From Candidatus Iainarchaeum sp. (GTDB lineage Archaea > Iainarchaeota > Iainarchaeia > Iainarchaeales > VGJJ01), in assembly GCA_030688545.1 (NCBI GenBank), contig JAUYHT010000002.1, positions 386,566 to 418,565 of the forward strand: a DNA stretch of 32,000 nucleotides, read 5' to 3'. Shown one piece after another: positions 387 through 32,000 of the stretch. The position numbers were made by a program, and so were the translations under genes. The first letter of the stretch is position 1, and each line of letters opens with the position of its first letter. The notes beneath the pieces are model-generated. The model did not search any database. It had not been told where the DNA came from and saw nothing but the letters and a program-made list of their open reading frames with translations.

Positions 387-2618
387 CTATACTTTCATCT
401 CTTCCACGCCACTGCCCTTCTTTCCCCCGAAGAGACGGGAGAAGAAAGAGGCGATGGATGCCAGAATCCCTTGGCGTGGGGTAGGATGGGAGTCCCCGTG
501 AATGGGTAAACCCGCGAGTCGGGCAGCGAGCTTCTGAACTTCAATGCATGATTTGGCCTGGGGGTTGCGGAGGATGACGGGCACCACTTTATCCTTGATG
601 AAGGAGTGACGCATCTCCACATCATACGGGATGACCGCGTAAACCGGGAGCTCGAGCATGCGAGAGACTTCATCTTTGGAAATTTCCCCCTTCTCGAAAT
701 GCACCATGTTGAGGACAATGCCAAGGGGCTTGCTGCCCAGGCGCTGGGCGACAATCTTGGTTTTCAAAACGTCCGCGATGGATGGGGAATCGGGAGTCGC
801 GATGAGCAAACATTCATCCGTGGCCGCGATGGACGCCAGAACGGATTTCTCGATGCCAGCGGGGCCGTCGAGGATAACAAAATCGTATTTATGCTGGATG
901 GACTTGATGATGGAGGAAAGCCTGTCCGCGTCGACGCGGCGATAGTTCTCAAGAGATAATCCAGAAGGAATAAGTTTCAGGCCGGCCGGACCATCGTACA
1001 ACGCATCCTGCACCCCCGCTTCCCCGAGGAGGACATCATGCAGAGTGATGGGAGAGGACTGCATCCCCAGCAACAAGGAAAGGTTGGCCATGGCGATATC
1101 CGCGTCAACCAAACAAACGGAGACTCCGCGCTGGGCGAGCGCGATGCCCAAGTTGGCGGCGATGGAGGTATTGGAACATAGGATTCCCGTGGCATGGGCG
1201 AAATGCCCGCCATAATCCGTTATCTGGAAATCATACACATAGGGATGATCGTAGGGAATTCGTTTTACCTCTTCCACGCGGCGAAATTCAACATTATCAT
1301 TCAGCATTTGCTCCAGCCAGGACAGGAGGGGGTGCTGAACCATCAAACGACGATACACTTCCAAATACCGTCGGACAGCCCCTTTGGAAAGGGCATAATA
1401 TTCCCACTCGTATTCGTACACCATCTGCTTGGTGCAACCCAATTCCTTTCCGATCTGTAGACCCGTGTACCCGGCATCCATGCGAATTTGCTTTAGGAGT
1501 TTTCCCACAGGGTACACATCAATATTCGTGTTCTCAACCGCTGGACTCTGAAGCTGATCAAGGAGGCGGAATGCTTTCCTTTTTCCCGTGAATCCAATGT
1601 AATCCGAATATCGTTGGGCATTAGCCCCTGTAATGTAAATACGCCAATAGGGTTGTTTGGAGGCCATTCTCCCATTGGTGGCCATTTTATAGGTCAATTT
1701 TATCTGGGAAGAGATTCCGAAACGCGTGCGCAAAATCGAGGCCACCTGGAATGCCAATTTCTTCGATTTGGTATCCAGTTCGATTTCCCGTCGATTGATG
1801 TTCACCGTCCCATCCGTATCAAAAAGACCCCTTAGGAAGGCGGCAATGGATGGGTTTTGGGAATGGAATAGAGCGGTTGGCACCTCCTTCTCCCCGGCCA
1901 AGGCTATTTTTACCCCATACTTCATGAAAAGATCGCGAATGGTTTTCTTTTTGTACTGGCTGAAAACATGCAGCCCACGATCCATATTTTCATGGATTTC
2001 CCCAAAAACATCTTTGTATGCGTTCCGAATGTTATCCGCCAAGTCTCCGGGCTCGGCACAGATGGAAATACGGTTCGCCTCCATATGCCCATCCCCGATA
2101 ACGTATCCCAACCACGTAGCAATAGGGATAGGAACACCCTCAGCATTCTCCTGATCATAAACGCCCTTGTGCAACACCAAATAATCTTTCGCTGGGATAA
2201 TCGCGTCGGCCCGGATTTTCTGCAAACGACCAGACCGCATCACAATGAAATGGTGTTCGGGCGTGACGGAAACACTCCCTGCCGCACAGGAAACGGTGAG
2301 CAACTCCTTGGGAGCTGGCTTACGCATCAAATGAACGGGTTTATCCTGGAAATGCACGACCTTCTGGTTCTCCTCCGAAAACAAAAAAGCGTGAAGCTGC
2401 AAATCGCCTGGCGAATCGAGGACCTCAAACACTTCTTCCAAACCATCAACAGTTTTCACGATGGCTTTCTTCACGGCTAATGGGTTCTGGGCGATGAGGG
2501 AATCGATGTACGGGCCGATTTGAATGATATCCCCATTCGCCAATGAGATGAACTCATCCTTATGAAGGCTCTTCCCCACGCCGCCCTTCCCCGAAACAAT
2601 AGTGATACTGCGACCCAT
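387..2618 (-). CDS. minD: MinD/ParA-family ATPase interrupted by a 467-aa intein (extein is 16 + 260 aa)
   Basis: The N-terminus SGKGGVGK (deviant Walker A with signature Lys) resumes as TSIAANLGIALAQRGVSVCLVDADIAMANLSLLLG. It also has DFVILDGPAGIE (Walker B region) and a C-terminal amphipathic segment, GILASIASFFSRLFGGKK, that resembles a MinD membrane-targeting helix. Confidence 0.9.
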   Translation of the reverse strand: MGRSITIVSGKGGVGKSLHKDEFISLANGDIIQIGPYIDSLIAQNPLAVKKAIVKTVDGLEEVFEVLDSPGDLQLHAFLFSEENQKVVHFQDKPVHLMRKPAPKELLTVSCAAGSVSVTPEHHFIVMRSGRLQKIRADAIIPAKDYLVLHKGVYDQENAEGVPIPIATWLGYVIGDGHMEANRISICAEPGDLADNIRNAYKDVFGEIHENMDRGLHVFSQYKKKTIRDLFMKYGVKIALAGEKEVPTALFHSQNPSIAAFLRGLFDTDGTVNINRREIELDTKSKKLAFQVASILRTRFGISSQIKLTYKMATNGRMASKQPYWRIYITGANAQRYSDYIGFTGKRKAFRLLDQLQSPAVENTNIDVYPVGKLLKQIRMDAGYTGLQIGKELGCTKQMVYEYEWEYYALSKGAVRRYLEVYRRLMVQHPLLSWLEQMLNDNVEFRRVEEVKRIPYDHPYVYDFQITDYGGHFAHATGILCSNTSIAANLGIALAQRGVSVCLVDADIAMANLSLLLGMQSSPITLHDVLLGEAGVQDALYDGPAGLKLIPSGLSLENYRRVDADRLSSIIKSIQHKYDFVILDGPAGIEKSVLASIAATDECLLIATPDSPSIADVLKTKIVAQRLGSKPLGIVLNMVHFEKGEISKDEVSRMLELPVYAVIPYDVEMRHSFIKDKVVPVILRNPQAKSCIEVQKLAARLAGLPIHGDSHPTPRQGILASIASFFSRLFGGKKGSGVEEMKV
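1170..2570 (-). mobile_element. Intein with LAGLIDADG homing endonuclease, inserted in the MinD Walker A loop (GKGGVGK | intein | TSIAANL)
   Basis: Junction codons were checked on the DNA: Asn codon at 1170-1172 and Thr(+1) at 1167-1169. Block A-like start SLHKDEFI (Ser1), block B TPEHH, LAGLIDADG motifs LGYVIGDGHM and LRGLFDTDGTV, C-terminal block VYDFQITDYGGHFAHATGILCSN followed by T. Confidence 0.85.
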
Positions 2619-9320: not shown

Positions 9321-12300
9321 ATGGAAAGAGAATCCTTCAAAGAGGGCCAGCGGGATGGCTATTCCAAGCCGGATGAGGAGATGGGAGTCGCCCCCTATGT
9401 GGGAAAGGGAGAGGCCAATCCTTTCATCCCCAAGCTCGAGGAATTCTTTTCCACCCACTACAAGAAGCAAATCGAGGATCTGGTGAGGGAATACCCCCAA
9501 AAACGGTCGCTGGTGATTGATTTCAAGGATTTGGAGGAATTCGACTTCCAGCTGGCGGACGAACTCATCGACCACCCGGATTTGGTGCTGGAAGCCGCGC
9601 GTCTGGCCGCCCAAAAGATAGATGTGCCCGCGCTGGAAATAGAGGTTTTCGCTCCCAATGTGCGCGTGCGGAGCCTGCCCCGGGATAGGATGCCCTTGGT
9701 GAAGGATATTTCGGCGCGCCATTTGGGAAAACTCATCACCCTGGAAGGGGTCATCCGGCAGCTCACGGATGTGCTGCCCAAATTGAAGACCGCGACCTGG
9801 AGTTGTAAGCGATGCTCTAATACGTATGTCATCGAGCAGGATGGGCACCAGTTGAGAAAACCTAATTTGTGCACGTGCAAGCACCGGGATTTCGAATTGG
9901 TGCCCGACCAGAGCACGTTTGTGGATTATCAAAAGATTCAGATCCAGGAACCATTAGAGTTGCTCAAGGGGAGCGAGCAAGCGGTGAATCTGGATGTGTA
10001 TATCCAAGATGATTTCGTGAACAAGGTGGCCCCGGGAGACCGCACGCAAATCACGGGGATTTTACGTTTATATCCCCCCAACAAGGAGAAGAAAGCGGTG
10101 TATGGGAGGTATTTGGAAGCCATCCACCTCGAGGAAACCGAGAAGGAGTTCGAGGAAGTGAATGTCGCGGACGAGGATGTGGAGGCCATCAAGGCGCTGG
10201 CGCAAAACCCGCGAATATATGGGCTGCTATCGGAAAGCATTGCCCCCACCATCTATGGGCATGAGATCGTGAAGGAATCCATATCCTTGCAATTGTTCGG
10301 GGGAGTGAAAAAACTGTTGCCGGGAGAGATGACCATTCGGGGAAATATTCATGTATTATTGGTGGGAGACCCGGGCACGGGGAAATCCCAACTCCTGCAG
10401 GCCACGGATAGAATAGCCCCCAAATCGGTGTATGTGAGTGGGAAAACAAGCTCGGGCGTAGGCCTTACCGCGTCAGCTGTTAAAGATGATTTTGGGGAAG
10501 GGGGATGGACGCTCAAGGCGGGAGCGCTCGTACTGGCCTCCGGGGGCATGGTAATGGTGGACGAATTTGATAAGATGGAGTGCCTAACCGGAGACACGCT
10601 TGTTTGCACCCAGAATGGAGAATTGAAACCCATTCAAACGATTTTTGAAGAGGCCAAAAAGGAAGGAAGAATCGAAAAAAATGAAAACGGAACAAGCATA
10701 CGCGATATTCAGAATCGATATGTACTATCAATGGATGAAAACCTGAAAATAGTCAAACGAAAAATGCTCGCGGCCCATGAATACCCCCATCAGGGAAGAA
10801 TTTTGGAAATACGACTCCAAAGTGGAGAAAAAATAAAAACCACCCCCAATCACCCTTTTTTTAGTACGACTGAAAAGGAGGTTAAAACCATTAAAGCCGG
10901 AAAATTGAAAGAAGGAGATTTTATCCTCGTTCCTGCCCGCTTGCCTAATGAAGAAGCAAGAGAATTCAATGAAAAACAATCACGCCTGTATGGGTATTTG
11001 GCTGGAGACGGAAATGTAACGTATAATCCGCCAGAAAATTATATGGTTCGATTCACCAACAAGGATGCAGAATTGCTGGATGACTTTAGTGTTTGTTGCG
11101 AAAGTATATTCGAGAAACCCACTATTTATCCCAGCGAAATTCGAGAGGGAGGTCTAATGTGCACACGGGCAAACGGACAAGCGTATGTTGATTTCATTGC
11201 AAAACATGCTCCCGGGCTCATGGAAAAATTTGACCAAAAATACACTCCATCGAATATTTACCACTCCACCCAAAACACCGCCCATTACCTTCGGGGAATA
11301 TTCGATTCAGAAGGGAATGTGGATACCCGCCACCAACAGGTTGGCTTTGCTTCCACCAGTGAGCGACTAACAATGGAAGTCAAGGCATTGCTGTTAAAAC
11401 ACGGAATAGTATCCCAAATACAGCACAAAGCATCCAAAGAAAAAAGAAGAGCTTCGTACGTTCTTCGAATCACCGATCATGACTCGCTTACACTTTTTTC
11501 CCAAAAAATTGGGTTTACCAGCAATAAAAAACAAAAAAAACTCAACACATTCATTCAACCAAAAAAAGAAAGAAGCGTTATCAATGTTATTCCAAACGCA
11601 GGAAGCCTACTCAAGGATATTCGAATGGATTTAGGATTACTGCAAAAAGAATGCGGGATAAACAAGGTCACCTACAACAATTTTGAAAATGAAACCTCAA
11701 ACATTAGCATCAAAAAAGCCCAAAAAATACTAGAAACATTCACGAGTTTAGCATTCAACAAGAACATTTCCAAGGAAACAAGGAAAAAAATAGAATACTT
11801 TGAAAAACTGGTTCATGGGGATGTCCGATGGAGAAAGATCCGAAAAATAAAAGAGGTTACACCCATCACGCCTAACCACCTAAGCTACCAACGCACGCAC
11901 CAATTAAACCAATATCTAGCCGAAATCGGAATGAAAAAAATCGTTCAAAAAAGAATGAAAGAAGCCATCCCGGCACTCATTCGAGAACTCGAAAAGAAAA
12001 AAGAAAATATCCGAGAAATGGTGAAAAATGATATCCAAACGTGGAACGAAGCGAAAAAAGCCATTGAAAATAAAGCGATTGTCCAAAAAAATATGGCAAA
12101 CGAATTGGGAGTAAACCAATCGACCCTGACACGATGGTTAAATCAGACCACCACCGCCCCCCCTCACGCGCTCCAGAAAACAACCGAAAAAATAAAAAGA
12201 AAACTATTGGAAAAAAAGGAAAAAATAGCACAAATAGAACAACTTTTAAACGAAACGATAGCCGAACCCACCACTCACATATACGATCTCACCATAGAGG

Positions 12301-13238
12301 GAAGCCATAATTTCATTGCAAATAATATCATTGTGCACAACTCAGAAGATCGGAGCTCCATGCACGAAGCGATGGAACAGGGACGGATTAGTGTGGCCAA
12401 AGCCGGGCTGGTGACCCGGTTTAAGACGGACACAAGCGTGCTCGCGGCCGCCAATCCCAAGCTGTCTCGGTTCGATCCATTCAAACCTTTCTTCGAACAA
12501 ATCGACTTGCCCTCCTCCCTCATCTCACGATTCGACCTGTTCTTTATGATTAGGGATACATTGAACAAGGAACGCGACGCTGCGATTACCCAACACATCT
12601 TATCCACCCATCAGGCGGGAGAACAAATGATGCAGATGCAGCGGAGTGGGAAGAAGATGGATGTGGAATGGCAAAAAGCACTCGAGAAGAAAGTGACGCC
12701 TATCATCGATACTGAGATGCTGAGAAAATACATCTCGTACGCCCGACAGAATGTGTTCCCGGTGCTCAGCCCGGAAGCCGTGCTGGTAATCCAGGATTTC
12801 TATGTTGGATTGAGGGACCAAGGAAGGCAGCAAGGAAGCTATTCGGCGACGGCACGGCAGTTGGAAGGACTGGTGCGGTTAGCTGAAGCAAGCGCCCGCG
12901 TCCGATTGAGTGACGTGGTGGAGAAAGAGGACGCGGATAGGAGCACCCGGTTGGTGCGGGCGTCATTGGAGGATGTGGTGCGAGATCCCGAGACGGGACG
13001 GATTGACATTGATATCGTGACGAGTGGGCAGACACAGAGCTCACGTGACCACATGAGAACGATCCTTGACATTATCCGGAGCAAGGGGAAGGAGATGGAG
13101 AAGGTGCCCATCCAGGATGTTATTGCGGAATCCATCGAAAGGGGTATTGATGAAGAGAAGGTGCGGGAACTCATCACCAAGCTCAAGCGGAGCGGAGAAA
13201 TTTACGAACCCTCCCATGGGTATCTCAAGGGCGCGTGA
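9321..13238 (+). CDS. mcm: MCM replicative helicase interrupted by a 587-aa intein
   Basis: Zinc motif CKRC...CTCKH, Walker A GDPGTGKSQLL, Walker B VDEFDKME, then after the intein SEDRSSMHEAMEQGRISVAKAG, followed by an arginine-finger region SRFDLFF and a C-terminal winged-helix-like tail. Confidence 0.95.
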   Translation: MERESFKEGQRDGYSKPDEEMGVAPYVGKGEANPFIPKLEEFFSTHYKKQIEDLVREYPQKRSLVIDFKDLEEFDFQLADELIDHPDLVLEAARLAAQKIDVPALEIEVFAPNVRVRSLPRDRMPLVKDISARHLGKLITLEGVIRQLTDVLPKLKTATWSCKRCSNTYVIEQDGHQLRKPNLCTCKHRDFELVPDQSTFVDYQKIQIQEPLELLKGSEQAVNLDVYIQDDFVNKVAPGDRTQITGILRLYPPNKEKKAVYGRYLEAIHLEETEKEFEEVNVADEDVEAIKALAQNPRIYGLLSESIAPTIYGHEIVKESISLQLFGGVKKLLPGEMTIRGNIHVLLVGDPGTGKSQLLQATDRIAPKSVYVSGKTSSGVGLTASAVKDDFGEGGWTLKAGALVLASGGMVMVDEFDKMECLTGDTLVCTQNGELKPIQTIFEEAKKEGRIEKNENGTSIRDIQNRYVLSMDENLKIVKRKMLAAHEYPHQGRILEIRLQSGEKIKTTPNHPFFSTTEKEVKTIKAGKLKEGDFILVPARLPNEEAREFNEKQSRLYGYLAGDGNVTYNPPENYMVRFTNKDAELLDDFSVCCESIFEKPTIYPSEIREGGLMCTRANGQAYVDFIAKHAPGLMEKFDQKYTPSNIYHSTQNTAHYLRGIFDSEGNVDTRHQQVGFASTSERLTMEVKALLLKHGIVSQIQHKASKEKRRASYVLRITDHDSLTLFSQKIGFTSNKKQKKLNTFIQPKKERSVINVIPNAGSLLKDIRMDLGLLQKECGINKVTYNNFENETSNISIKKAQKILETFTSLAFNKNISKETRKKIEYFEKLVHGDVRWRKIRKIKEVTPITPNHLSYQRTHQLNQYLAEIGMKKIVQKRMKEAIPALIRELEKKKENIREMVKNDIQTWNEAKKAIENKAIVQKNMANELGVNQSTLTRWLNQTTTAPPHALQKTTEKIKRKLLEKKEKIAQIEQLLNETIAEPTTHIYDLTIEGSHNFIANNIIVHNSEDRSSMHEAMEQGRISVAKAGLVTRFKTDTSVLAAANPKLSRFDPFKPFFEQIDLPSSLISRFDLFFMIRDTLNKERDAAITQHILSTHQAGEQMMQMQRSGKKMDVEWQKALEKKVTPIIDTEMLRKYISYARQNVFPVLSPEAVLVIQDFYVGLRDQGRQQGSYSATARQLEGLVRLAEASARVRLSDVVEKEDADRSTRLVRASLEDVVRDPETGRIDIDIVTSGQTQSSRDHMRTILDIIRSKGKEMEKVPIQDVIAESIERGIDEEKVRELITKLKRSGEIYEPSHGYLKGA
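10581..12341 (+). mobile_element. Intein with LAGLIDADG endonuclease and extra HTH/Lys-rich region, inserted immediately after the MCM Walker B motif
   Basis: Codons checked on the DNA: TGC (Cys1) at 10581, CAC-AAC (His-Asn) at 12336-12341, Ser(+1) at 12342. Blocks CLTGDTLV, TTPNHPF, LYGYLAGDGNV, LRGIFDSEGNV and IYDLTIEGSHNFIANNIIVHN. HTH-like segment MANELGVNQSTLTRWL. Confidence 0.9.
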
Positions 13239-25503: not shown

Positions 25504-25574
25504 GCGGGGGTGGCAGAACGGTTATGCGCCGGCCTGCAGAGCCGGAAAACCGAGTTCAACTCTCGGCCCCCGCT
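25504..25574 (+). tRNA. tRNA-Cys (anticodon GCA), no encoded CCA
   Basis: Hand-folded cloverleaf. Acceptor GCGGGGG/CCCCCGC. D arm GCA-loop-TGC with GG in the loop. Anticodon stem CCGGC/GCCGG with loop CTGCAGA. Four-nt variable loop. T arm CCGAG-TTCAACT-CTCGG. Discriminator U73, the known tRNA-Cys identity base. Confidence 0.85.
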
Positions 25575-25762
25575 TAGGGTTCCACGTTAAAACGCGGTGA
25601 AAATAGTCGAAAACCGCGCTTCAACTGGGAATCAGAATAACGGTCCCCGCTTCGAGTTACGAGTTAAAGTGCGGTAAAATAAAGTAAGAACACCGCACTT
25701 CAACACGGAATTCAAATAGCGGCTCCCGCTTGGGTCTTCGCGTTGAAGCGCGCACCAACTGG
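25564..25762 (+). repeat. About 2.7 tandem copies of a roughly 78-bp unit, each starting with a copy of the tRNA-Cys 3' end
   Basis: CGGCCCCCGCTT (25564-25575, tRNA 3' end), CGGTCCCCGCTT (25641-25652) and CGGCTCCCGCTT (25720-25731), spaced 77 and 79 bp apart. Units 1 and 2 carry hairpins CGCGGT/ACCGCG (25593-25598 / 25613-25618) and GTGCGGT/ACCGCAC (25669-25675 / 25692-25698), each followed by CTTCAAC. Units 2 and 3 match at 38 of 55 positions in my ungapped hand alignment. Confidence 0.65.
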
Positions 25763-25770
25763 ATTTAAAG
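25763..25770 (+). promoter_or_regulatory. Putative TATA box for the integrase
   Basis: ATTTAAAG lies about 31 nt upstream of the ATG at 25801, immediately after the last repeat unit. Confidence 0.35.
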
Positions 25771-25800
25771 AACTTGGAAAAGCCAAGGTGCGTGATCCAC

Positions 25801-27084
25801 ATGGAAGACCATTTGTACAAGCGTCCACATAGTTTCGAGCTGCTTCGATCTCGAATTTGGCCAGATGAATTCCCATACAATGGGGCCAGTTACCGAGAAC
25901 GACGTGTATATACTTTGACACCCGCGAATCGGCTACTCCTTCGCCGCTATCTTGTCAATCTGGAAAACCAGAACTATGGACTTAACCGCAAGTACCGTCT
26001 CATCGAGATTATGGCAGTTTTAGGAGAAATGTTTTGTAGAGACTTCGAGTCCGCAACGAAAGATGACATACAAGGCCAAGAAGGGTTAGTGTCCAAGATT
26101 ATGCACAAATGGACCAATGACACTACAAAAGAGATGTATATCCAAGGCCTAAAACAATTTTACAAATGGTTCGGACAAACCACGGAGTACCCTGAAGTAG
26201 TGAAAGGAATTAAATTTCAAAAAAAGAAAGGAAAGAAGTTGCTCGATATTCCAACCGAGGAAAAAATAGCCGAATTAATTCAAGCTGCTGGAAATCCGAT
26301 GCACAAGGCAATGATTTCAACTATCTATAGTTCAGCTGGAAGAATAGGTGAAATCGCACGGCTGCAAGTCAAGGATGTAATATTCCAGGATGATGAAGCA
26401 GTGATCCATATTCTGCATAGTAAAACAGAGGAGCGGCAGGTTCTGCTCGTAGACTCAACCGTTCAACTTCTTCGCGAAGCATTACTCTATCATCCCCATC
26501 GGGACAAAGAAGACTTTCAAGATAGACTACTTTTTGTAAGCGTGGCACCATCTTCATATGGTAAGCCGTTTGGATATGCGGCTATTGTAAAAATACTTAA
26601 GCAATGTGCTGAGAAAGTCCGCATCAAAGGATTGCATCCTCATTTGTTACGCCATGCGAGAGCCACCCATTTAATTCAACGAGGACTAAATGAAATGCAG
26701 CTGAAGGTAGTTCTGGGCCATTCTTATTCCAGTCGCGCAACGGCAGTTTATCTCCACCTTAGTGGAAAAGATACCTATGATGCAATTCGAACAGTAAATG
26801 GAAAAAAGAGAATCACAGAAGAAAAACAAAATCCATTACTTGGAAAAAAATGCGATATCTGTGCAACCAACAATACCTTCGAAGACAAAGTGTGTCGAAA
26901 ATGTCAGCGGCCTCTTGGCGTCCTGGAGAGAATGGAATACAAAGATCAAATGAAAACATTGCAGGAACATATTTTGCAAATGGAGCAGCTAAATAATGAA
27001 AGAATGAGCAAGATGGAGAAAGCATACGATATGTTGCTTCAGGCCATTCTAAAACAAAGGGAGGCAACGATCCATCAGGTGTAA
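25801..27084 (+). CDS. int: Tyrosine recombinase/integrase with C-terminal zinc-ribbon and coiled-coil extension
   Basis: Catalytic residues in order: AGRIGEIARL (Arg I), HPHLLRHARATH (His-x-x-Arg), LGHS (His/Trp position) and AVYLHL (nucleophilic Tyr). C-terminal CDIC-x10-CRKC, then a heptad-like tail. Start trimmed from the TTG at 25774 to the ATG at 25801. Confidence 0.9.
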   Translation: MEDHLYKRPHSFELLRSRIWPDEFPYNGASYRERRVYTLTPANRLLLRRYLVNLENQNYGLNRKYRLIEIMAVLGEMFCRDFESATKDDIQGQEGLVSKIMHKWTNDTTKEMYIQGLKQFYKWFGQTTEYPEVVKGIKFQKKKGKKLLDIPTEEKIAELIQAAGNPMHKAMISTIYSSAGRIGEIARLQVKDVIFQDDEAVIHILHSKTEERQVLLVDSTVQLLREALLYHPHRDKEDFQDRLLFVSVAPSSYGKPFGYAAIVKILKQCAEKVRIKGLHPHLLRHARATHLIQRGLNEMQLKVVLGHSYSSRATAVYLHLSGKDTYDAIRTVNGKKRITEEKQNPLLGKKCDICATNNTFEDKVCRKCQRPLGVLERMEYKDQMKTLQEHILQMEQLNNERMSKMEKAYDMLLQAILKQREATIHQV

Positions 27085-27374
27085 TCGCTATAGCAACGGT
27101 ATGAAGAATTACATCCTTTGAGGATGGTACAACTGTATTCATCCCCATTCTTGCATGCAATATCACAGGCCGGAATTATCTTTCGGTCTTCGCAAAAGAA
27201 AACACATTCATTTACATCGTTTTTTTCCACACAATTATTGTACTTTCTTTCAACATATCCACCGCTCCAGACAGCTAAAATAATGAAAAGTAGAACCACC
27301 CCAATCGCAGCCCACCACATCCATGAAAGCGAGTGGAGTTTCTTTTTCTGCAGGTCTTTTTTATCTTGAGCCAT
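27075..27374 (-). CDS. Small single-pass membrane protein with a Cys-rich ectodomain
   Basis: Basic N-terminus, TM segment WMWWAAIGVVLLFIILAVW, then 8 Cys in about 55 aa (NCVEKNDVNECVFFCEDRKIIPACDIACKNGDEYSCTILKGC...RC). Convergent with the integrase, overlapping its 3' end by 10 nt. Confidence 0.5.
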   Translation of the reverse strand: MAQDKKDLQKKKLHSLSWMWWAAIGVVLLFIILAVWSGGYVERKYNNCVEKNDVNECVFFCEDRKIIPACDIACKNGDEYSCTILKGCNSSYRCYSDYT

Positions 27375-27511
27375 AATCTCAACCTATAGATTGAGAATTA
27401 ACCGTCAATCCGTTAAAACCTTTACGGCGGACTGACCTCCCTCCTCCTAAAGCTTCTTTATTACAAGTAGTATCAGGTATCGCTTTGGTCAGGTTAACCT
27501 CGGGGGTTGGT

Positions 27512-27706
27512 ATGAAGTGCGCACTATCGCCAGCGGTACAGGAGTGGATCAGGACTGCAATAGAAATGGGATGGGCTGATCCACATGACTCAATCAGCGA
27601 TCCATATTCAAATGACTCTATAATTTCACGCCGGGATAAGAATTATCGGGAAGTTTATTCGTTAAGTTTGGTCCGCCAAAAACAACAGATGAAAGAATTT
27701 CATTGA
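27512..27706 (+). CDS. Possible small RHH-like protein
   Basis: ATG at 27512 with GGGGGT upstream and a TATA-like CTTTATTA at 27456-27463. The N-terminus KCALSPAVQEWIRTAIEMGW has a strand-helix pattern. The 3' third overlaps the convergent wHTH gene, so the true extent is doubtful. Confidence 0.3.
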   Translation: MKCALSPAVQEWIRTAIEMGWADPHDSISDPYSNDSIISRRDKNYREVYSLSLVRQKQQMKEFH

Positions 27707-28244
27707 TAGAGGATAAGTTTTGAATTTCCCTTTCGATTTTTTTTACGACATCTTCGAGTTTTGTTTTCCCTTCAGCTGCTTGAACTCGAAATGATTCACG
27801 CAAAGTTTGGCGTGTTTTGTAATTCATTATAAGGTTGGTCGAGAATGACAAAAATGCGCGTTCCAAATTTTCAACTCGAAGTTTTGGTAGTTGTTTTTCA
27901 ATGTACCAATCAAATTCGTTTGTAAAAGATTTGTTGGACAAAAATTGATCCTTATCTTTTTCTTTAAGTGGCCGATTAGCATCAACCCATTTTAAGTAAA
28001 AGCTCAAAATTCCCCTCATATTTGGTGTGTATTTTTTTATTCGTTTATCTTCTTCTCGGGACTCAATGACAATAAGATCTTCGTCTCCGAGTATTTTTAC
28101 ATAGACCCAAACATTTTGTTCTTTTTCTGAAATAGCCTCCGTAATCTGCGCAACGCTGTCTTTTCCTTCGATAATTTTTTGGAGTGTGCGAAAAATAACT
28201 GTCGAAGTTAGTGGATAGTATGTTTGATTGGATTCACTTGGCAT
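27618..28244 (-). CDS. Winged-helix DNA-binding protein, candidate element repressor/regulator
   Basis: The N-terminal VIFRTLQKIIEGKDSVAQITEAISEKEQNVWVYVKILGDEDLIVIESREEDKRIKKYTPN fits an ArsR/TrmB-like wHTH layout. Divergent from the plus-strand small-gene operon. Start trimmed to the ATG at 28244. Confidence 0.55.
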   Translation of the reverse strand: MPSESNQTYYPLTSTVIFRTLQKIIEGKDSVAQITEAISEKEQNVWVYVKILGDEDLIVIESREEDKRIKKYTPNMRGILSFYLKWVDANRPLKEKDKDQFLSNKSFTNEFDWYIEKQLPKLRVENLERAFLSFSTNLIMNYKTRQTLRESFRVQAAEGKTKLEDVVKKIEREIQNLSSINEILSSVVFGGPNLTNKLPDNSYPGVKL

Positions 28245-28454
28245 CGATAGCAATGAATAAGTCAAGGCTTTAAACTACCTATTGTTTTTCCCGCGAAAAA
28301 ATGAATTATGTTCGTTGAAATATCGACGACGGCGGAATGGCCCCCCTCTCTGAACGCCCATTTAAACTCAAATACATTATGCTCTGCATAAGGTGATTTG
28401 TGTGTATACTTACCCAGTGCATACCAAAGCAACAGCAGAGAGGGAGGAAGATCA

Positions 28455-28604
28455 GTGAGTGTTATTCTCTCTCCAGAGGTCGCTGAGAGCCTATTGCTCG
28501 CATACGAAGCGGGCGGGTGGAGACCAAAGACCCCTGAGGAAGAATCGCTTCTTGACCAAGCCAAAAGACAATCGGAGGCAAATCGCGTGCAAATAAAAAT
28601 GTGA
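28455..28604 (+). CDS. Possible small RHH-like protein
   Basis: In-frame GTG at 28455 preceded by GGGAGGAAG. VSVILSPEVAESLLLAYEAGGW has a strand-helix pattern. An 8-bp hairpin (28608-28628) follows the stop. Confidence 0.35.
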   Translation: MSVILSPEVAESLLLAYEAGGWRPKTPEEESLLDQAKRQSEANRVQIKM

Positions 28605-28679
28605 CCAAAGGGGAAAGCCCTTCCCCTTCAGCCGATTTGAGTCGCTCGTTCCAAAACAATACAACCCAAGGTGAAATCG

Positions 28680-28898
28680 ATGAAGGATTCAACCAATAAA
28701 AAACCCATTCACGAGATAACCGTCCTTTCCTGGAAAAACAGACAATCTACAAGATTGCCAATACCAACCCGATTTTTACGAAAAAATTTCCCAGAGCTCG
28801 GGCGCCAATCTCAGAAAGGAATTCTCATTGCTTCTCGAACTTCTGATGGGAAGCCTGAAATTCGTTTTGTTTGCACGGAGGCGACTGTCTGCCAATAG
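28680..28898 (+). CDS. Possible AbrB/SpoVT-like small DNA-binding protein
   Basis: STRLPIPTRFLRKNFPELG...GILIASRTSDGKPEIRFV resembles the swapped-hairpin 'itIPkeir' signature. ATG at 28680. Confidence 0.35.
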   Translation: MKDSTNKKPIHEITVLSWKNRQSTRLPIPTRFLRKNFPELGRQSQKGILIASRTSDGKPEIRFVCTEATVCQ

Positions 28899-28918
28899 CA
28901 GGTCGAAAATGATTCCTC

Positions 28919-29089
28919 ATGCGACGAATATTCCGAAAAAATCCGCTCATGGACTTAATGGCAAAACAAGATCCAGAAGGATTCAGGGAAGCAGTTCAAA
29001 AAGCCGCCGCTGAAGTCGCGAAAGAATTCCAAGAACATAATGCAAAACTGAAAGCAAAAGCCGAAGAACAGCGAGAAGGGGGTGTATGA
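28919..29089 (+). CDS. Unlisted 56-aa helical, charged ORF
   Basis: Below the ORF-track size cutoff. My translation is MRRIFRKNPLMDLMAKQDPEGFREAVQKAAAEVAKEFQEHNAKLKAKAEEQREGGV. It looks more protein-like than the listed overlapping ORF at 28828-29013, and its stop overlaps the next ORF's start region. Confidence 0.35.
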   Translation: MRRIFRKNPLMDLMAKQDPEGFREAVQKAAAEVAKEFQEHNAKLKAKAEEQREGGV

Positions 29090-29444
29090 AGTGACCAACC
29101 CTAAAGATATTCAATACTATTCAGCAATGGAAAAAGAGCTGCGACACTCCCAAGTTGAGAAAGCATACAAACTACTTGAGCATGACTGCATCGAATACGA
29201 TCATGTTCGAAAACGATTCATCTGCAAACCAATTAGGGGATACAATTCCACCACTTACATTTTCGAACGTATTCCAAAAAAGATTCCTATCGGGGAAAGC
29301 TCGATTTCTCACGAGTGTAACTGTCAAGGGTATCAAACCAAAAAACGGAAAGGAGAAACGCCGTTTTGCAGCCATCTCTTAGCGCTTCATTACTGGTTTA
29401 ACCAGCGAAACAAATCGAAAGGCTGGGGGAAGTACCGCCAATGA
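29082..29444 (+). CDS. SWIM-type zinc-finger protein
   Basis: CNCQGYQTKKRKGETPFCSHLLALH matches the CxC-x(n)-CxH SWIM signature. The start is uncertain: GTG at 29082 or ATG at 29127. Confidence 0.6.
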   Translation: MYEVTNPKDIQYYSAMEKELRHSQVEKAYKLLEHDCIEYDHVRKRFICKPIRGYNSTTYIFERIPKKIPIGESSISHECNCQGYQTKKRKGETPFCSHLLALHYWFNQRNKSKGWGKYRQ

Positions 29445-29545
29445 ACCCAGGCATTACATGCTACGATTGCAACGGGACTGGAATGAACCCCTTCTCTACT
29501 CGTCCAGAGAATTGCCCAACGTGCAAGGGAACGGGACTACTATGA
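29441..29545 (+). CDS. Unlisted 34-aa mini-protein with two CxxCxGxG (DnaJ-type zinc-finger) motifs
   Basis: My translation is MNPGITCYDCNGTGMNPFSTRPENCPTCKGTGLL. Its ATG overlaps the upstream TGA (ATGA at 29441-29444) and its TGA overlaps the next ATG (ATGA at 29542-29545). Confidence 0.45.
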   Translation: MNPGITCYDCNGTGMNPFSTRPENCPTCKGTGLL

Positions 29546-30177
29546 ATGACCCCCGCCATTCCGGAAGAAACTTCTTAGATTGTGGAGAAGGAAAAAGAAT
29601 AGAGGACACACTATTCACGAAGCAGAAACTTCTTACATTATCCAATGAAGTGAATAGTGAAGGCGACTCCCACAATGGAAGAAGAAACTTACTGAATTGT
29701 AGCGAAGTAGATATTCAAACATTGGAAAAGCTCTTACAGTATCCCCGAAAAAAAGCTGCACAACTCCGCAAAATCAGGGAGTTATGTCTGGCTAACGAAC
29801 GATTGTTTCTCAACGTACTGCAAAAGGAATTGGATATTCCATCGAAAAATTGGATATGTGGACTCATGCGTGAAGCAGCTCACGTGTTTGGCTTTCACTA
29901 TTATCCAGGAAATAAAAGCTTCCAAACCAACATCATGCGCATCGCGCCCCAAGATAGAGTAGGACATTCGGTCGTAGAAGTCTACGAGTCCTTTTCCTAT
30001 CACGGAGCAGGGGATACGCGCACGCTTCAATCCGTAAAAAATCAATTCCAATTATCGGACGAAGAGTTAGTCTCATTCGTTCAGCGAATCCAAAACGTTT
30101 CAGTTGGAGGATATCATCTTCGTCTGACCGGAAAATTGAACCAAAAATTGACTGAAAGGAGACTCTACAAAGCATGA
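29542..30177 (+). CDS. Hypothetical protein (211 aa)
   Basis: In frame with the track ORF 29458-30177. I prefer the start at the ATGA junction at 29542 (MNDPRHSG). Internal duplicated motif SGRNFLDCGEG / NGRRNLLNCSEV. Confidence 0.55.
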   Translation: MNDPRHSGRNFLDCGEGKRIEDTLFTKQKLLTLSNEVNSEGDSHNGRRNLLNCSEVDIQTLEKLLQYPRKKAAQLRKIRELCLANERLFLNVLQKELDIPSKNWICGLMREAAHVFGFHYYPGNKSFQTNIMRIAPQDRVGHSVVEVYESFSYHGAGDTRTLQSVKNQFQLSDEELVSFVQRIQNVSVGGYHLRLTGKLNQKLTERRLYKA

Positions 30178-30383
30178 TGTACCCATTCCGATGCACCAGC
30201 AAAAGTTGCAATATCATTGTCTTCATATCATCCTTGACCCCGCTCATACCAATGTGCCCATCCTGCCAAATGCACCCCATTGAATCAATATACTTAGTCG
30301 AGTGTGCCAAAACGGAAGAAATGAAAACAGAAATTTCTCCAGACAGATCTGTGACTCAACCAATGGAGGCTATCACTCCATGA
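30174..30383 (+). CDS. Small zinc-ribbon protein
   Basis: CTSKSC ... CPSC cysteine pairs. ATGA overlap with the upstream gene at 30174-30177. Confidence 0.5.
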   Translation: MMYPFRCTSKSCNIIVFISSLTPLIPMCPSCQMHPIESIYLVECAKTEEMKTEISPDRSVTQPMEAITP

Positions 30384-30598
30384 AAACCAAAACACAAATA
30401 ATCACCAAAACAGGAGGGACAATCAATTGGACAAACGAGGAGACATTAGAAATATCCTATGAAAAAGTTGAAACGATTCTCTCAGCGGCGATAAATCACT
30501 CCACTAAAATGGTGGTCATTCCCGCTCCTGGAAAAAAAGTCTGGATCCCCCTCGAACACATTGCCAGCATTTGGGTAGAGGAGACAAACGATGCGTAA
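30380..30598 (+). CDS. Hypothetical small protein (72 aa)
   Basis: ATGA overlap at 30380-30383. Start trimmed from the track ORF 30302-30598. Confidence 0.45.
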   Translation: MKTKTQIITKTGGTINWTNEETLEISYEKVETILSAAINHSTKMVVIPAPGKKVWIPLEHIASIWVEETNDA

Positions 30599-31118
30599 CA
30601 CTCTCAAAGAAATACCCGGCGGAACCATACGGGGCGAAACAAGCATGGCATACGCCGCCTTCCAAAAATACCGCGATATGGAAGAGAGGTCACTCCGCCA
30701 ACTGGCACAAACCCTATCAGAAAAGGAAGGGGGCAATACCGGGGCAAAACAGGGGCAGTTAGAGGTATGGAGCACACGATACAAATGGGTTAAACGCTGC
30801 CAAGAATGGGATGAATACCAAGACGCCATCCTCCGTCAAACCCACCTCAAGGAAATAGCACAGATGTCTAAACGCCAGGCCGAAGCGGCAAAGAGACTCC
30901 AAGAAAAGGGCTTACAAAAGATTGAGAAAACAAAGCCAGCAAAAATGAGCTTCGGAGATGCAACCCGCGCAGTGGTAGAGGGGGCAAAACTGGAACGATT
31001 GGCTCGCGGAGAATCCCAGTCCATTCAAGATAATCGAGTGGAGGTCGTTTTTACTATTGAAGAAGAGGGAGGTAAAACAGATGCTCACGACGACCCGTCC
31101 GAAAAAGATAACGATTAA
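30591..31118 (+). CDS. Putative terminase small subunit (HTH protein immediately upstream of TerL)
   Basis: RSLRQLAQTL...LEVWSTRYKWVKRCQEWD follows the HTH plus W-x-x-R-x-x-x-WD pattern common in small terminases. Coiled-coil middle and acidic tail. Its position immediately 5' of, and overlapping, TerL supports the call. Confidence 0.5.
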   Translation: MRNTLKEIPGGTIRGETSMAYAAFQKYRDMEERSLRQLAQTLSEKEGGNTGAKQGQLEVWSTRYKWVKRCQEWDEYQDAILRQTHLKEIAQMSKRQAEAAKRLQEKGLQKIEKTKPAKMSFGDATRAVVEGAKLERLARGESQSIQDNRVEVVFTIEEEGGKTDAHDDPSEKDND

Positions 31119-32000
31119 CTATCGACCCCTCCCAAAGCAAAAAGCATTTCATCAAGCACAAAACAAATTTACTGGATACATTGGCGGTTTGGGGTCTGGC
31201 AAAACCTATGCGGGAGCCATGAAAGCTATCAGCTTCATGCTGTCTCACCAGGGTTCACAAGGTATGATTGCAGCCCCCAATTATCCTATGCTGCGAAAGT
31301 CGACCATGCCAACCTTTTTCGAAATTCTGCCCCCAGAGCTCATCAAGAACTATCACAAAACATACCATGAATTAGAACTCATCAATGGTGCCAAAACCTT
31401 TTTTGTCTCCACGGAAAAACCTGACCACTTGCGCGGACCAAATCTTTCCTGGTGGTGGTACGACGAAGCATCAAGTGGATCACGAACATCATTCGATGTC
31501 TTAGTCGGCCGACTTCGTGTGGGGAAAGCAAAGGCATGGGTAACGGGGACTCCAAAAGGATTCAACTGGGTCTACGAACGTTTTGCCGATCCAATAAAAA
31601 AACTCCAAGACACTTTTCTTATTGCAAGCTCTTCCAGAGAAAACACCTACTTGCCTTCTGATTACGTTCCAATGTTGGAAAGAACCTACACCGGAGCGTT
31701 TGCAAAACAAGAAATTGAAGGAGAGTTCGTGGGATTTGAAGGATTAGTATATCCCGACTTCTCCTACGAGGCCCATTGCCGCCCGGAATTTCCAATCGAA
31801 AAACGAGGACTGCCCGCCTACGTGGGAGTGGATTTTGGATACACCAATCCCAGCGCCCTAATCCTCGTTACTGTCGACTCGGACGACCGCATATGGATCT
31901 GGGAAGAATTTTATCAATCGGGAGTATTTGTCGAAGAGTTGATTAAGCAGATTAAAACGTGGCAGTCTCAAGGATTCAATATTCATTCATGCTTTTGTGA
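31081..32000 (+). CDS. terL: Terminase large subunit (TerL), N-terminal ~306 aa; open at the window end
   Basis: Absent from the ORF track because there is no stop in the window. My translation is MLTTTRPKKITINYRPLPKQKAFHQAQNKFTGYIGGLGSGKTYAG...LSWWWYDEAS...WVTGTPKG...YVGVDFGYTNPSALILV. This gives Walker A GSGKT, Walker B hhhhDE, coupling motif TGTP, and the start of the RNase H-like nuclease domain (VDFG). Confidence 0.88.
   Translation, partial: MLTTTRPKKITINYRPLPKQKAFHQAQNKFTGYIGGLGSGKTYAGAMKAISFMLSHQGSQGMIAAPNYPMLRKSTMPTFFEILPPELIKNYHKTYHELELINGAKTFFVSTEKPDHLRGPNLSWWWYDEASSGSRTSFDVLVGRLRVGKAKAWVTGTPKGFNWVYERFADPIKKLQDTFLIASSSRENTYLPSDYVPMLERTYTGAFAKQEIEGEFVGFEGLVYPDFSYEAHCRPEFPIEKRGLPAYVGVDFGYTNPSALILVTVDSDDRIWIWEEFYQSGVFVEELIKQIKTWQSQGFNIHSCFC

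Follow-up and report, generated by a model that had tools for sequence, protein, structure and literature searches.

The tRNA-Cys gene and the provirus beside it

The window, by which we mean the whole 32,000-nucleotide stretch of DNA that was analyzed, comes from a metagenome-assembled genome of Candidatus Diapherotrites (DPANN archaea) and contains an intact tRNA-Cys(GCA) gene with housekeeping genes to its left, encoding a HAD hydrolase, a methyltransferase, a metallophosphoesterase, topoisomerase VI, eIF1A and MCM. To the right of the tRNA gene the GC content drops from ~0.52 to 0.40-0.46, and three short units lie between the tRNA and an integrase gene, with genes for a small and a large terminase further on (Table 1). 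The integrase, the two terminases and the drop in GC content together argue that the tRNA gene is followed by a head-tailed provirus. For two provirus ORFs, exact-protein look-ups returned no record; the integrase protein has an exact match in NCBI, a Ca. Diapherotrites integrase.

Table 1. Features of the tRNA-Cys locus in window coordinates; mini-element, att and promoter assignments are predictions from sequence
Feature	Coordinates	Strand	Details
tRNA-Cys(GCA), intact	25504..25574	+	ARAGORN; Rfam RF00005, 61.1 bits; aligned with six orthologous tRNA-Cys genes
Core 1, CGGCCCCCGCTT	25564..25575	+	the final 11 tRNA nt and one T; att core at the left of mini-element 1
Mini-element 1, left arm	25576..25598	+	10-nt spacer AGGGTTCCAC and motif GTTAAAACGCGGT; geometry as in L010, L030, L009 and L003
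Mini-element 1, interior	25599..25612	+	14 nt, A-rich; relatives have ~1 kb of cargo at the same place
Mini-element 1, right arm	25613..25640	+	inverted motif ACCGCGCTTCAAC and 15-nt spacer TGGGAATCAGAATAA; geometry as in the right ends of L010, L030 and L006
Core 2, CGGTCCCCGCTT	25641..25652	+	core shared by mini-element 1 (attR) and mini-element 2 (attL)
Mini-element 2, left arm	25653..25675	+	spacer CGAGTTACGA and motif GTTAAAGTGCGGT; closest to the L009 arm
Mini-element 2, interior	25676..25691	+	16 nt
Mini-element 2, right arm	25692..25719	+	ACCGCACTTCAAC and 15-nt spacer ACGGAATTCAAATAG
Core 3, CGGCTCCCGCTT	25720..25731	+	core shared by mini-element 2 (attR) and the provirus (attL)
Provirus attL arm and int promoter region	25732..25770	+	spacer GGGTCTTCGC, motif GTTGAAGCGCGCA, CCAACTGG, TATA-like ATTTAAAG
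Xer-like tyrosine integrase, intact	25801..27084	+	427 aa; Pfam PF00589, 4.9e-23; PHROG integrase
Provirus body	27085..32000	.	small ORFs with no family hit; continues past position 32000, attR beyond the window
Small terminase	30591-31118		phrog_6299
Large terminase	from ~31100, runs off the window end		phrog_2, Terminase_3, Terminase_6N

The integrase has extensions of ~100 aa at both ends, the C-terminal one holding a zinc-ribbon-like stretch. Its best family match is XerA (NCBIfam NF040815), with 119.8 bits under a cutoff of 220, and the integron integrase models also stay below their cutoffs (TIGR02249, 48.6 bits against 265; PRK15417, 25 against 435). By these profile scores, the predicted enzyme is Xer-like and is neither XerA nor an integron integrase. 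Its ORF starts 70 nt past the third core. The earlier note had placed a TATA-like box immediately after the array; this box is present, at a position corrected to 25763-25770, 31 nt upstream of the int ATG at 25801, and the region around it presumably serves as the int promoter. Integration of the SSV (self-partitioning) type was considered and rejected, given that the int ORF is intact over 427 aa with a full catalytic domain and that the core lies upstream of the ORF.

Among Logan contigs, the window integrase was found in one only (L005, 3.3 kb), which equals window positions 25547-28886 base for base; the metagenome-assembled genome (MAG) and this contig may share the same reads. Since the k-mers of the units are distinct in this match, the array is no chimera of alternative strains.

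Three units between the tRNA and the integrase

According to the earlier note, a segment made of the final 11 nt of the tRNA and one T recurs twice, 77 and 79 bp further on, and an exact-match scan of the 32 kb agrees: the only exact plus-strand matches to the 12-mer CGGYYCCCGCTT are the three cores, at those spacings. The source of the core is the 3' acceptor strand of tRNA-Cys(GCA), and all three copies have at most one mismatch to the tRNA 3' end, as looked for in the direct repeats of an att core. The description of the array as a triplicated tRNA-Cys 3' end holds for the cores but goes too far for the units, in which only ~12 nt are shared with the tRNA and the remainder appears to be element DNA.

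The plan of the units is fixed: core, 10 nt, GTTRAARYGCGGT, interior, ACCGCRCTTCAAC, 15 nt and then the next core. Units 1 and 2 each hold GTTAAARYGCGGT together with its inverted partner ACCGCRCTTCAAC, in arms of 21-25 nt around an A-rich interior of 14-16 nt. The hairpin that had been put at 6-7 bp is consequently much longer, its arms of ~21-25 nt taking in GTTAAA..GCGGT and the complement ACCGC..CTTCAAC. CTTCAAC had been read as an echo of the tRNA T-loop; it is instead the reverse complement of the GTTGAAG arm motif. A degraded T-arm before cores 2 and 3 was ruled out too, as the 15 nt before the second core of two related elements (L010 and L030, below) are not tRNA-like. What T-loop resemblance there is before cores 2 and 3 is weak (5-7 of 11 positions) and is better explained by an inner half-site for binding.

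Unit 3 consists of core 3, 10 nt and GTTGAAGCGCGCACCAAC, followed by the TATA-like box. The loop and the second arm that this unit was said to have lost are indeed absent, but nothing need have been lost, as the unit corresponds to the attL arm of the provirus. From its sequence and position, unit 3 is the predicted attL junction of the head-tailed provirus.

Likeness between the units extends beyond the core, as the earlier note had claimed, and it withstood comparison with dinucleotide-shuffled controls. The local alignment of units 1 and 2 scored 56, against 14.7 +/- 2.6 for the shuffles (z 15.6), and none of 2000 shuffles reached that score. The same held for units 1 and 3 (z 6.3; 0 of 2000), and 20 of 2000 shuffles reached the score of units 2 and 3 (z 3.3). 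Over their full length, units 1 and 2 match each other best (~72%), which leaves a small probability that one mini-element was duplicated and then diverged. Tandem Repeats Finder did not call the array, even at a score of 30, owing to indels and to a likeness of no more than 63-73% between copies; detection required seed-extension and alignment.

Because the arms are mutually inverted, the attachment site obtained by rejoining right arm, core and left arm is a palindrome centered on the core. In silico, this rejoined site is a 63 bp imperfect palindrome with its dyad on core position 4, in which 20-22 of 31 positions are complementary for unit 1, unit 2 and the L010 element. A tyrosine recombinase that works around a short central stretch would be expected to use such a layout.

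Occupied, empty and polymorphic sites in related genomes

We scanned metagenomes with the pattern core-N10-GTTRAARYGCG, which recovered two groundwater contigs, L009 and L010, from one related species. In L010, from a Diapherotrites relative, Metallophos and HAD genes lie upstream of tRNA-Cys, the same as in the window. Its tRNA-Cys site is occupied by an integrase-less element of 1070 bp, which carries a 74-aa ORF and a queuosine-precursor transporter gene in the order tRNA core, 10 nt, GTTGAAACGCGG, two genes, CCGCGCTTCAAC, 15 nt, second exact core and host genes. A second integrase-less element, of 1344 bp, was reached through a HAD homolog in a Diapherotrites MAG (L030), where a gene for an HTH protein lies between two CGGCTCCCGCTT cores. 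In both elements exact 12-nt cores stand on both sides, and the motif is absent from the host flank past the second core. The end geometry is the same throughout: all seven left ends (window units 1 to 3, L003, L009, L010 and L030) read core, 10 nt, GTTRAARYGCGGT, and all five right ends (window units 1 and 2, L010, L030 and L006) read motif, 15 nt, core. Since the plan of units 1 and 2 is the one that bounds the 1.07 kb and 1.34 kb elements, these units are complete left-end plus right-end shells. On this comparison, units 1 and 2 are best described as putative integrase-less elements reduced to their left and right arms, with interiors of 14 and 16 nt, and their "hairpin" arises because terminal inverted repeats sit back to back.

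Sites lacking the units were found in five relatives, one of them a clean empty site. In the latter (L025/L026/L029), tRNA-Cys is followed after 55 nt by a convergent GGR-like gene, with neither the motif nor a second core; units, motif and second core are likewise all absent from L031 and L032. These relatives bear on the possibility that the units belong to the host, as sequence conserved 3' of its tRNA-Cys gene. The GTTRAARYGCGG motif does follow tRNA-Cys in L003, L009, L010 and L030, as this would predict; it is missing, though, from the element-free relatives and from the flank past the second core in L010 and L030, and it also accompanies int at a tRNA-Ser gene in L007. We therefore give a host origin next to no credence. 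The earlier note had named a comparison with element-free genomes as one that could overturn its claim, and the claim came through it.

The site also varies among close relatives. L002 and L003 encode a HAD protein identical to that of the window, yet have a left arm directly 3' of the tRNA that differs from the window's, the alternative arm joined to the tRNA being ATAACTTACAGTTGAAACGCGG. The left arms of L009 and L010 likewise differ within one sample, and three assemblies (L001, L004 and L027) end exactly at the core. A scan of genome collections with the tRNA 3' end returned one related MAG contig, L004, which terminates at the tRNA. As judged from these assemblies, the tRNA-Cys site appears to be polymorphic within populations. 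A different insertion, of 1.4 kb, starts exactly after the core in L024/L028, without arms or a second core.

Exact motif matches within the window were confined to the tRNA-Cys locus. In the 294 kb of DNA retrieved for comparison, the composite patterns fell at the expected junctions, and other matches occurred only in loci that had been found by a search with a similar pattern. Searches of IMG/VR with four DNA patterns and one integrase query gave chance matches only, none with extended arms: one was in a coding region (L011) and others were mostly GC-rich (L016-L023). A metagenome match in GC-rich coding DNA (L008) was also set aside as chance.

The inverted arms of units 1 and 2 could in principle act as structured RNA or as a DNA cruciform that regulates int or the 3' processing or termination of the tRNA; the earlier note had listed a structured regulatory element upstream of int among its options. 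The unit 2 arms are 80% complementary, and the hairpin is far more stable than its shuffles both as DNA (-12.2 kcal/mol, z -5.1) and as RNA (-20.8 kcal/mol, z -6.7); the RNA fold of unit 1 has a z of -3.0, and one position covaries between the arms, C/G in unit 1 and T/A in unit 2. Unit 3 has no significant fold, however (z about -0.5), and in an Rfam scan of the window only the tRNA reached the gathering score. As the empty sites show, the tRNA can do without such an element. Moreover, the corresponding arms are 1.0-1.3 kb apart in L010 and L030, so local pairing is not the conserved feature. A regulatory structure is thus unsupported by the comparison, and we regard it as very improbable. 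The unit 2 hairpin is better described as a pair of terminal inverted repeats, in a unit with zero coding capacity.

The two closest relatives of the integrase clarify how its own junction is built. In L007 the int gene (43% identical) follows tRNA-Ser, with the motif again beginning 11 nt past the discriminator base. In L006 the int gene (54% identical) adjoins a right-type junction (core, 15 nt, motif inverted); its flank holds a GGR-like gene that is 62% identical to the L025 copy, a GGR-like gene being what borders the tRNA-Cys site in relatives. An alignment shows the attL arm conserved upstream of int in both, and a block of TTTCGCGTTGAAKCGC..ACCAA plus a TATA-like box precedes int in the window, L006 and L007. 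More distant relatives (35-37% identity; L012-L015) have no adjoining tRNA and no motif, indicating that the arm motif is confined to the closest integrase relatives.

These loci also speak to a further suggestion of the earlier note, that the units are arm-type sites for the integrase or an excisionase. At the level of the motif this is compatible with what we see. In its stronger form, the three units would be one functional binding array in the viral attP, carried by the free virus and controlling integration, excision or int expression. The arm motif is kept upstream of int in three int-bearing elements, abutting the TATA-like box, and the motifs show the repetition and palindromic symmetry often found in sites that bind proteins. 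A dedicated provirus array nevertheless fails on the related int-bearing elements, L006 and L007, which have a single junction each. In addition, such units form both ends of the integrase-less L010 and L030 elements, where a provirus is absent, and in the window every unit has its own core copy, the copies matching tRNA variants of other species. A multi-unit attP array is, in our estimation, unlikely.

The core variants were traced by aligning seven orthologous tRNA-Cys genes. Their natural 3' ends read CGGCC in the window and four others, CGGTC in the L025 species and CGGCT in the L030 species, the last with a compensating G6-to-A change in tRNA-Cys. Window cores 2 and 3 are exactly the CGGTC.. 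and CGGCT.. variants: the L025 species has core 2 as its own tRNA-Cys 3' end, the L030 species has core 3, and core 2 also equals the core of L006. Random decay of a displaced tRNA fragment would rarely hit these two variants. That cores 2 and 3 equal tRNA ends of other species instead fits elements that import their own core version from other hosts.

The arms point the same way. The unit 1 left arm and the L030 left arm are identical at 27 of 28 positions, while third-codon positions of the HAD gene are just 39% identical between the window and L030 genomes and the spacer between HAD and the tRNA cannot be aligned. Synonymous sites between the two hosts are thus nearly saturated, and the near-identity of the arms despite such divergence argues for horizontal spread. 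For unit 2, ~13 of the 17 positions made up by the interior and the last T of the left arm (25675) resemble the left interior of L010, as compared by eye.

A purely local origin has to be weighed against these observations, namely that slippage or unequal crossing-over tandemly duplicated the provirus attL region and that the copies then diverged, with no independent insertions. The full-length alignment of units 1 and 2 (z 15.6) and the regular periodicity of 77 and 79 bp are what duplication would produce, and among the genomes compared the tandem stack of two mini-elements is known from this genome only. Against it, unit 1 is closer in its left arm to the element of a distant species than unit 1 is to unit 2, at ~72%, and unit 2 resembles L009 in its left arm and L010 in its interior. 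Both core variants are natural tRNA-Cys ends elsewhere, the same end geometry bounds the gene-carrying 1.07 kb and 1.34 kb elements, and the likeness of units 2 and 3 is weak (z 3.3). Local duplication therefore seems to us an improbable source of the array.

Probable stacked insertions and their relation to known systems

The reading that we favor, and consider likely, is that the array reflects three successive site-specific insertions at the tRNA-Cys 3' end by one integrative-element family. The conserved geometry, the empty sites, the core variants and the near-identical arms argue for separate insertions and for horizontal spread. The first of the earlier note's three options, stacked att remnants, was essentially right, and the empty relatives agree with it, except that units 1 and 2 are not remnants of junctions but complete shells of elements that measure 1.07-1.34 kb in relatives. 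Random decay alone does not account for two independent reductions that end at nearly equal minimal sizes (77 and 79 bp).

Under the favored reading, insertions of the family at one 12-nt core would have left the tRNA followed by mini-element 1, then mini-element 2 and then the provirus. The integrase would recognize the core region and the GTTRAARYGCGGT arms, which are very probably its binding sites. The int-proximal arm at 25742-25759 would overlap the putative int promoter and might double as an operator or promoter element, through which the integrase may regulate its own expression. DNA looping sets limits on tyrosine recombinases, so that a distance of 77-79 bp between cores would be too short for them to excise efficiently; the mini-elements would for this reason be unable to excise alone. 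They would leave only with the provirus, when recombination takes core 1 or core 2 over core 3, amounting to mobilization in cis.

The genomes of DPANN archaea are tiny, and both their mobile elements and their ways of gaining genes are poorly known. The analysis presents tRNA-Cys as a hot spot for one site-specific element family, polymorphic within populations and common to several species, that would span a full head-tailed provirus, 1 kb single-gene cassettes and 77 bp empty shells. Its geometry, constant at 10 nt from core to left arm and 15 nt from right arm to core, provides a testable recombination site for an uncharacterized Xer-like archaeal integrase. For annotation, "tRNA-fragment arrays" beside integrases can represent complete miniature elements and not tRNA debris.

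More speculatively, the integrase-less units may be active hitchhiking cassettes that are moved by viral Xer-like integrases in trans or in cis, an idea that we hold tentatively. Each cassette might then comprise inverted integrase-binding arms and the 12-nt tRNA-Cys core around zero, one or two genes, such as a preQ0/queuosine-precursor transporter or an HTH regulator, although we would not rank this content as probable. It is conceivable, if doubtful, that these cassettes stack at tRNA-Cys and pass between Diapherotrites species with proviruses, in a virus-driven and integron-like manner. If the cassettes can be mobilized, they would offer a symbiont a route to gain transporters and regulators; if this reading is true as a whole, it would describe a platform for gene cassettes, integron-like and driven by viruses, in DPANN archaea with reduced genomes.

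The locus has the marks used to recognize integrative elements, a tyrosine recombinase gene at one end and an unoccupied site in relatives (L025/L026/L029). The closest known concept appears to be the bacterial cis-mobilizable element (CIME) with tandem accretion, of which the locus would be a miniature archaeal counterpart by analogy. According to a review (PMC5704250), CIMEs have lost integration and transfer genes and kept attL and attR, and tandem accretion proceeds by successive site-specific integration. Such elements stand in tandem with an integrase-bearing one of equal site specificity at a tRNA gene 3' end, ICESt1/ICESt3 of Streptococcus thermophilus being the bacterial example. Units 1 and 2 similarly keep both arms and both cores and have no integrase, the L010 and L030 elements being integrase-less as well, and the provirus attL (core 3 and its arm) uses the same att site directly after mini-element 2. 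The partner here, in contrast, is a head-tailed provirus with terminases and not an ICE or IME, and conjugation or mobilization genes are absent. The present case further differs in its DPANN archaeal host, its inverted-repeat att arms and its two gene-less elements of 77-79 bp, whose mobilization is a prediction.

Tandem integration of archaeal viruses and plasmids at one tRNA locus and loss of the integrase gene after integration are known, according to a review of archaeal tyrosine recombinases (PMC8371274). The cases described there are kb-sized and come from Thermococcales, Methanococcales, Sulfolobales and Thaumarchaeota, unlike the 77-79 bp shells of the window; the term "DPANN" is absent from that review, and a search of it turned up no miniature two-arm shells.

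The mini-elements resemble MITEs in being short and gene-less with terminal inverted repeats, and presumably in being internal-deletion derivatives that need an enzyme in trans. They differ in that the flanking repeat is a fixed 12-nt tRNA-Cys core and not a variable target-site duplication, that the probable enzyme is a tyrosine recombinase and not a transposase, and that the copies are not dispersed. Integrons and CALINs share with the locus a tyrosine recombinase gene beside tandem small units with imperfect palindromic sites, and units that hold no gene or one or two, with cargo that differs between genomes. The integrase of the window is not IntI, however; it belongs to a provirus, its sites are tied to a tRNA 3' end, and single-stranded recombination of the attC type finds no support here. 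With XerA/dif the locus has in common a palindromic rejoined site around a short center, comparable to the dif inverted repeats that flank a spacer (PMC8371274); it departs from that system in the integrase score (119.8 against 220), in targeting a tRNA gene and in the outer GTTRAARYGCGGT motifs, which extend beyond a dif-sized site. What sets the locus apart from these known systems is the combination of a DPANN host, a viral partner, inverted-repeat arms, reduction to less than 80 bp and parallel 1 kb single-gene versions whose cargo differs between species.

Insertions and their cargo at tRNA-Cys

Because the integrase-less element at the tRNA-Cys locus of the Diapherotrites relative L010 holds a queuosine-precursor transporter gene, a mobile cassette inserted in a tRNA gene may have as its cargo a function that salvages a precursor for tRNA modification, in an archaeon whose genome is reduced. 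The protein encoded by a second such element, in the relative L030, is 325 aa long and contains two domains of the HTH_AsnC type or of HTH_24.

The insertion on contigs L024 and L028 is of a different kind from these arm-bounded elements, although it occupies the same point, since neither the inverted-repeat arm motif nor a second copy of the 12-nt tRNA-Cys 3' core is present in it. Its genes comprise an HD-domain gene and one with a faint match to Anp1 (PF03452), and the host is a strain of a species in which the empty site, with tRNA-Cys followed by host flank, occurs as well.

Features at the tRNA-Cys site of related contigs and elsewhere in the window
Feature	Location	Remarks
Integrase-less element, 1.07 kb	L010 2422-3479	At tRNA-Cys; carries queuosine-precursor (preQ0/preQ1) transporter gene (Vut_1 family, TIGR00697)
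Integrase-less element, 1.34 kb	L030 4561-5843	Minus strand relative to locus; end geometry as in L010 element
Insertion, 1.4 kb	L024 4333-5800; L028 1-66	Begins exactly after tRNA-Cys core
Small-protein and PIN-domain pair	L010 3494-4098; L030 3608-4196; L032 6945-7751	
MCM helicase gene	Window 9321-13238	Split by intein with LAGLIDADG homing-endonuclease domain
ParA/Mrp-like P-loop ATPase gene	Window 387-2618	Minus strand; intein with LAGLIDADG domain
Small terminase	Window 30591-31118	Provirus
Large terminase		Provirus; continues beyond window end

Flanks of the integration site

In three related species the tRNA-Cys integration site adjoins a gene pair, encoding a small protein and a PIN-domain protein, that is probably a toxin-antitoxin module. 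The empty-site flank of contig L025 (5735-5789, host sequence after tRNA-Cys in minus-strand reading) contains GTTGATGCGAGCGCGCAC 22 nt past the core. Its likeness to the arm motif GTTGAAGCGCGCAC is loose, but the spacing is wrong and 4 nt are inserted; the likeness could reflect chance or a very old remnant. The core is also the exact contig end in three independent assemblies (L001, L004 and L027), which would be an expected de Bruijn graph effect of population heterogeneity or of repeated cores.

Inteins and provirus

Two genes of the window, for an MCM helicase and a P-loop ATPase, carry inteins, and the one in the MCM gene falls on the low-GC stretch (0.40) at 11-12 kb. To the right of tRNA-Cys, this Ca. 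Diapherotrites genome holds a head-tailed provirus (window 27085-32000), in which the majority of the ORFs from int to the terminases have no family match. Documentation of proviruses in this DPANN lineage is poor.
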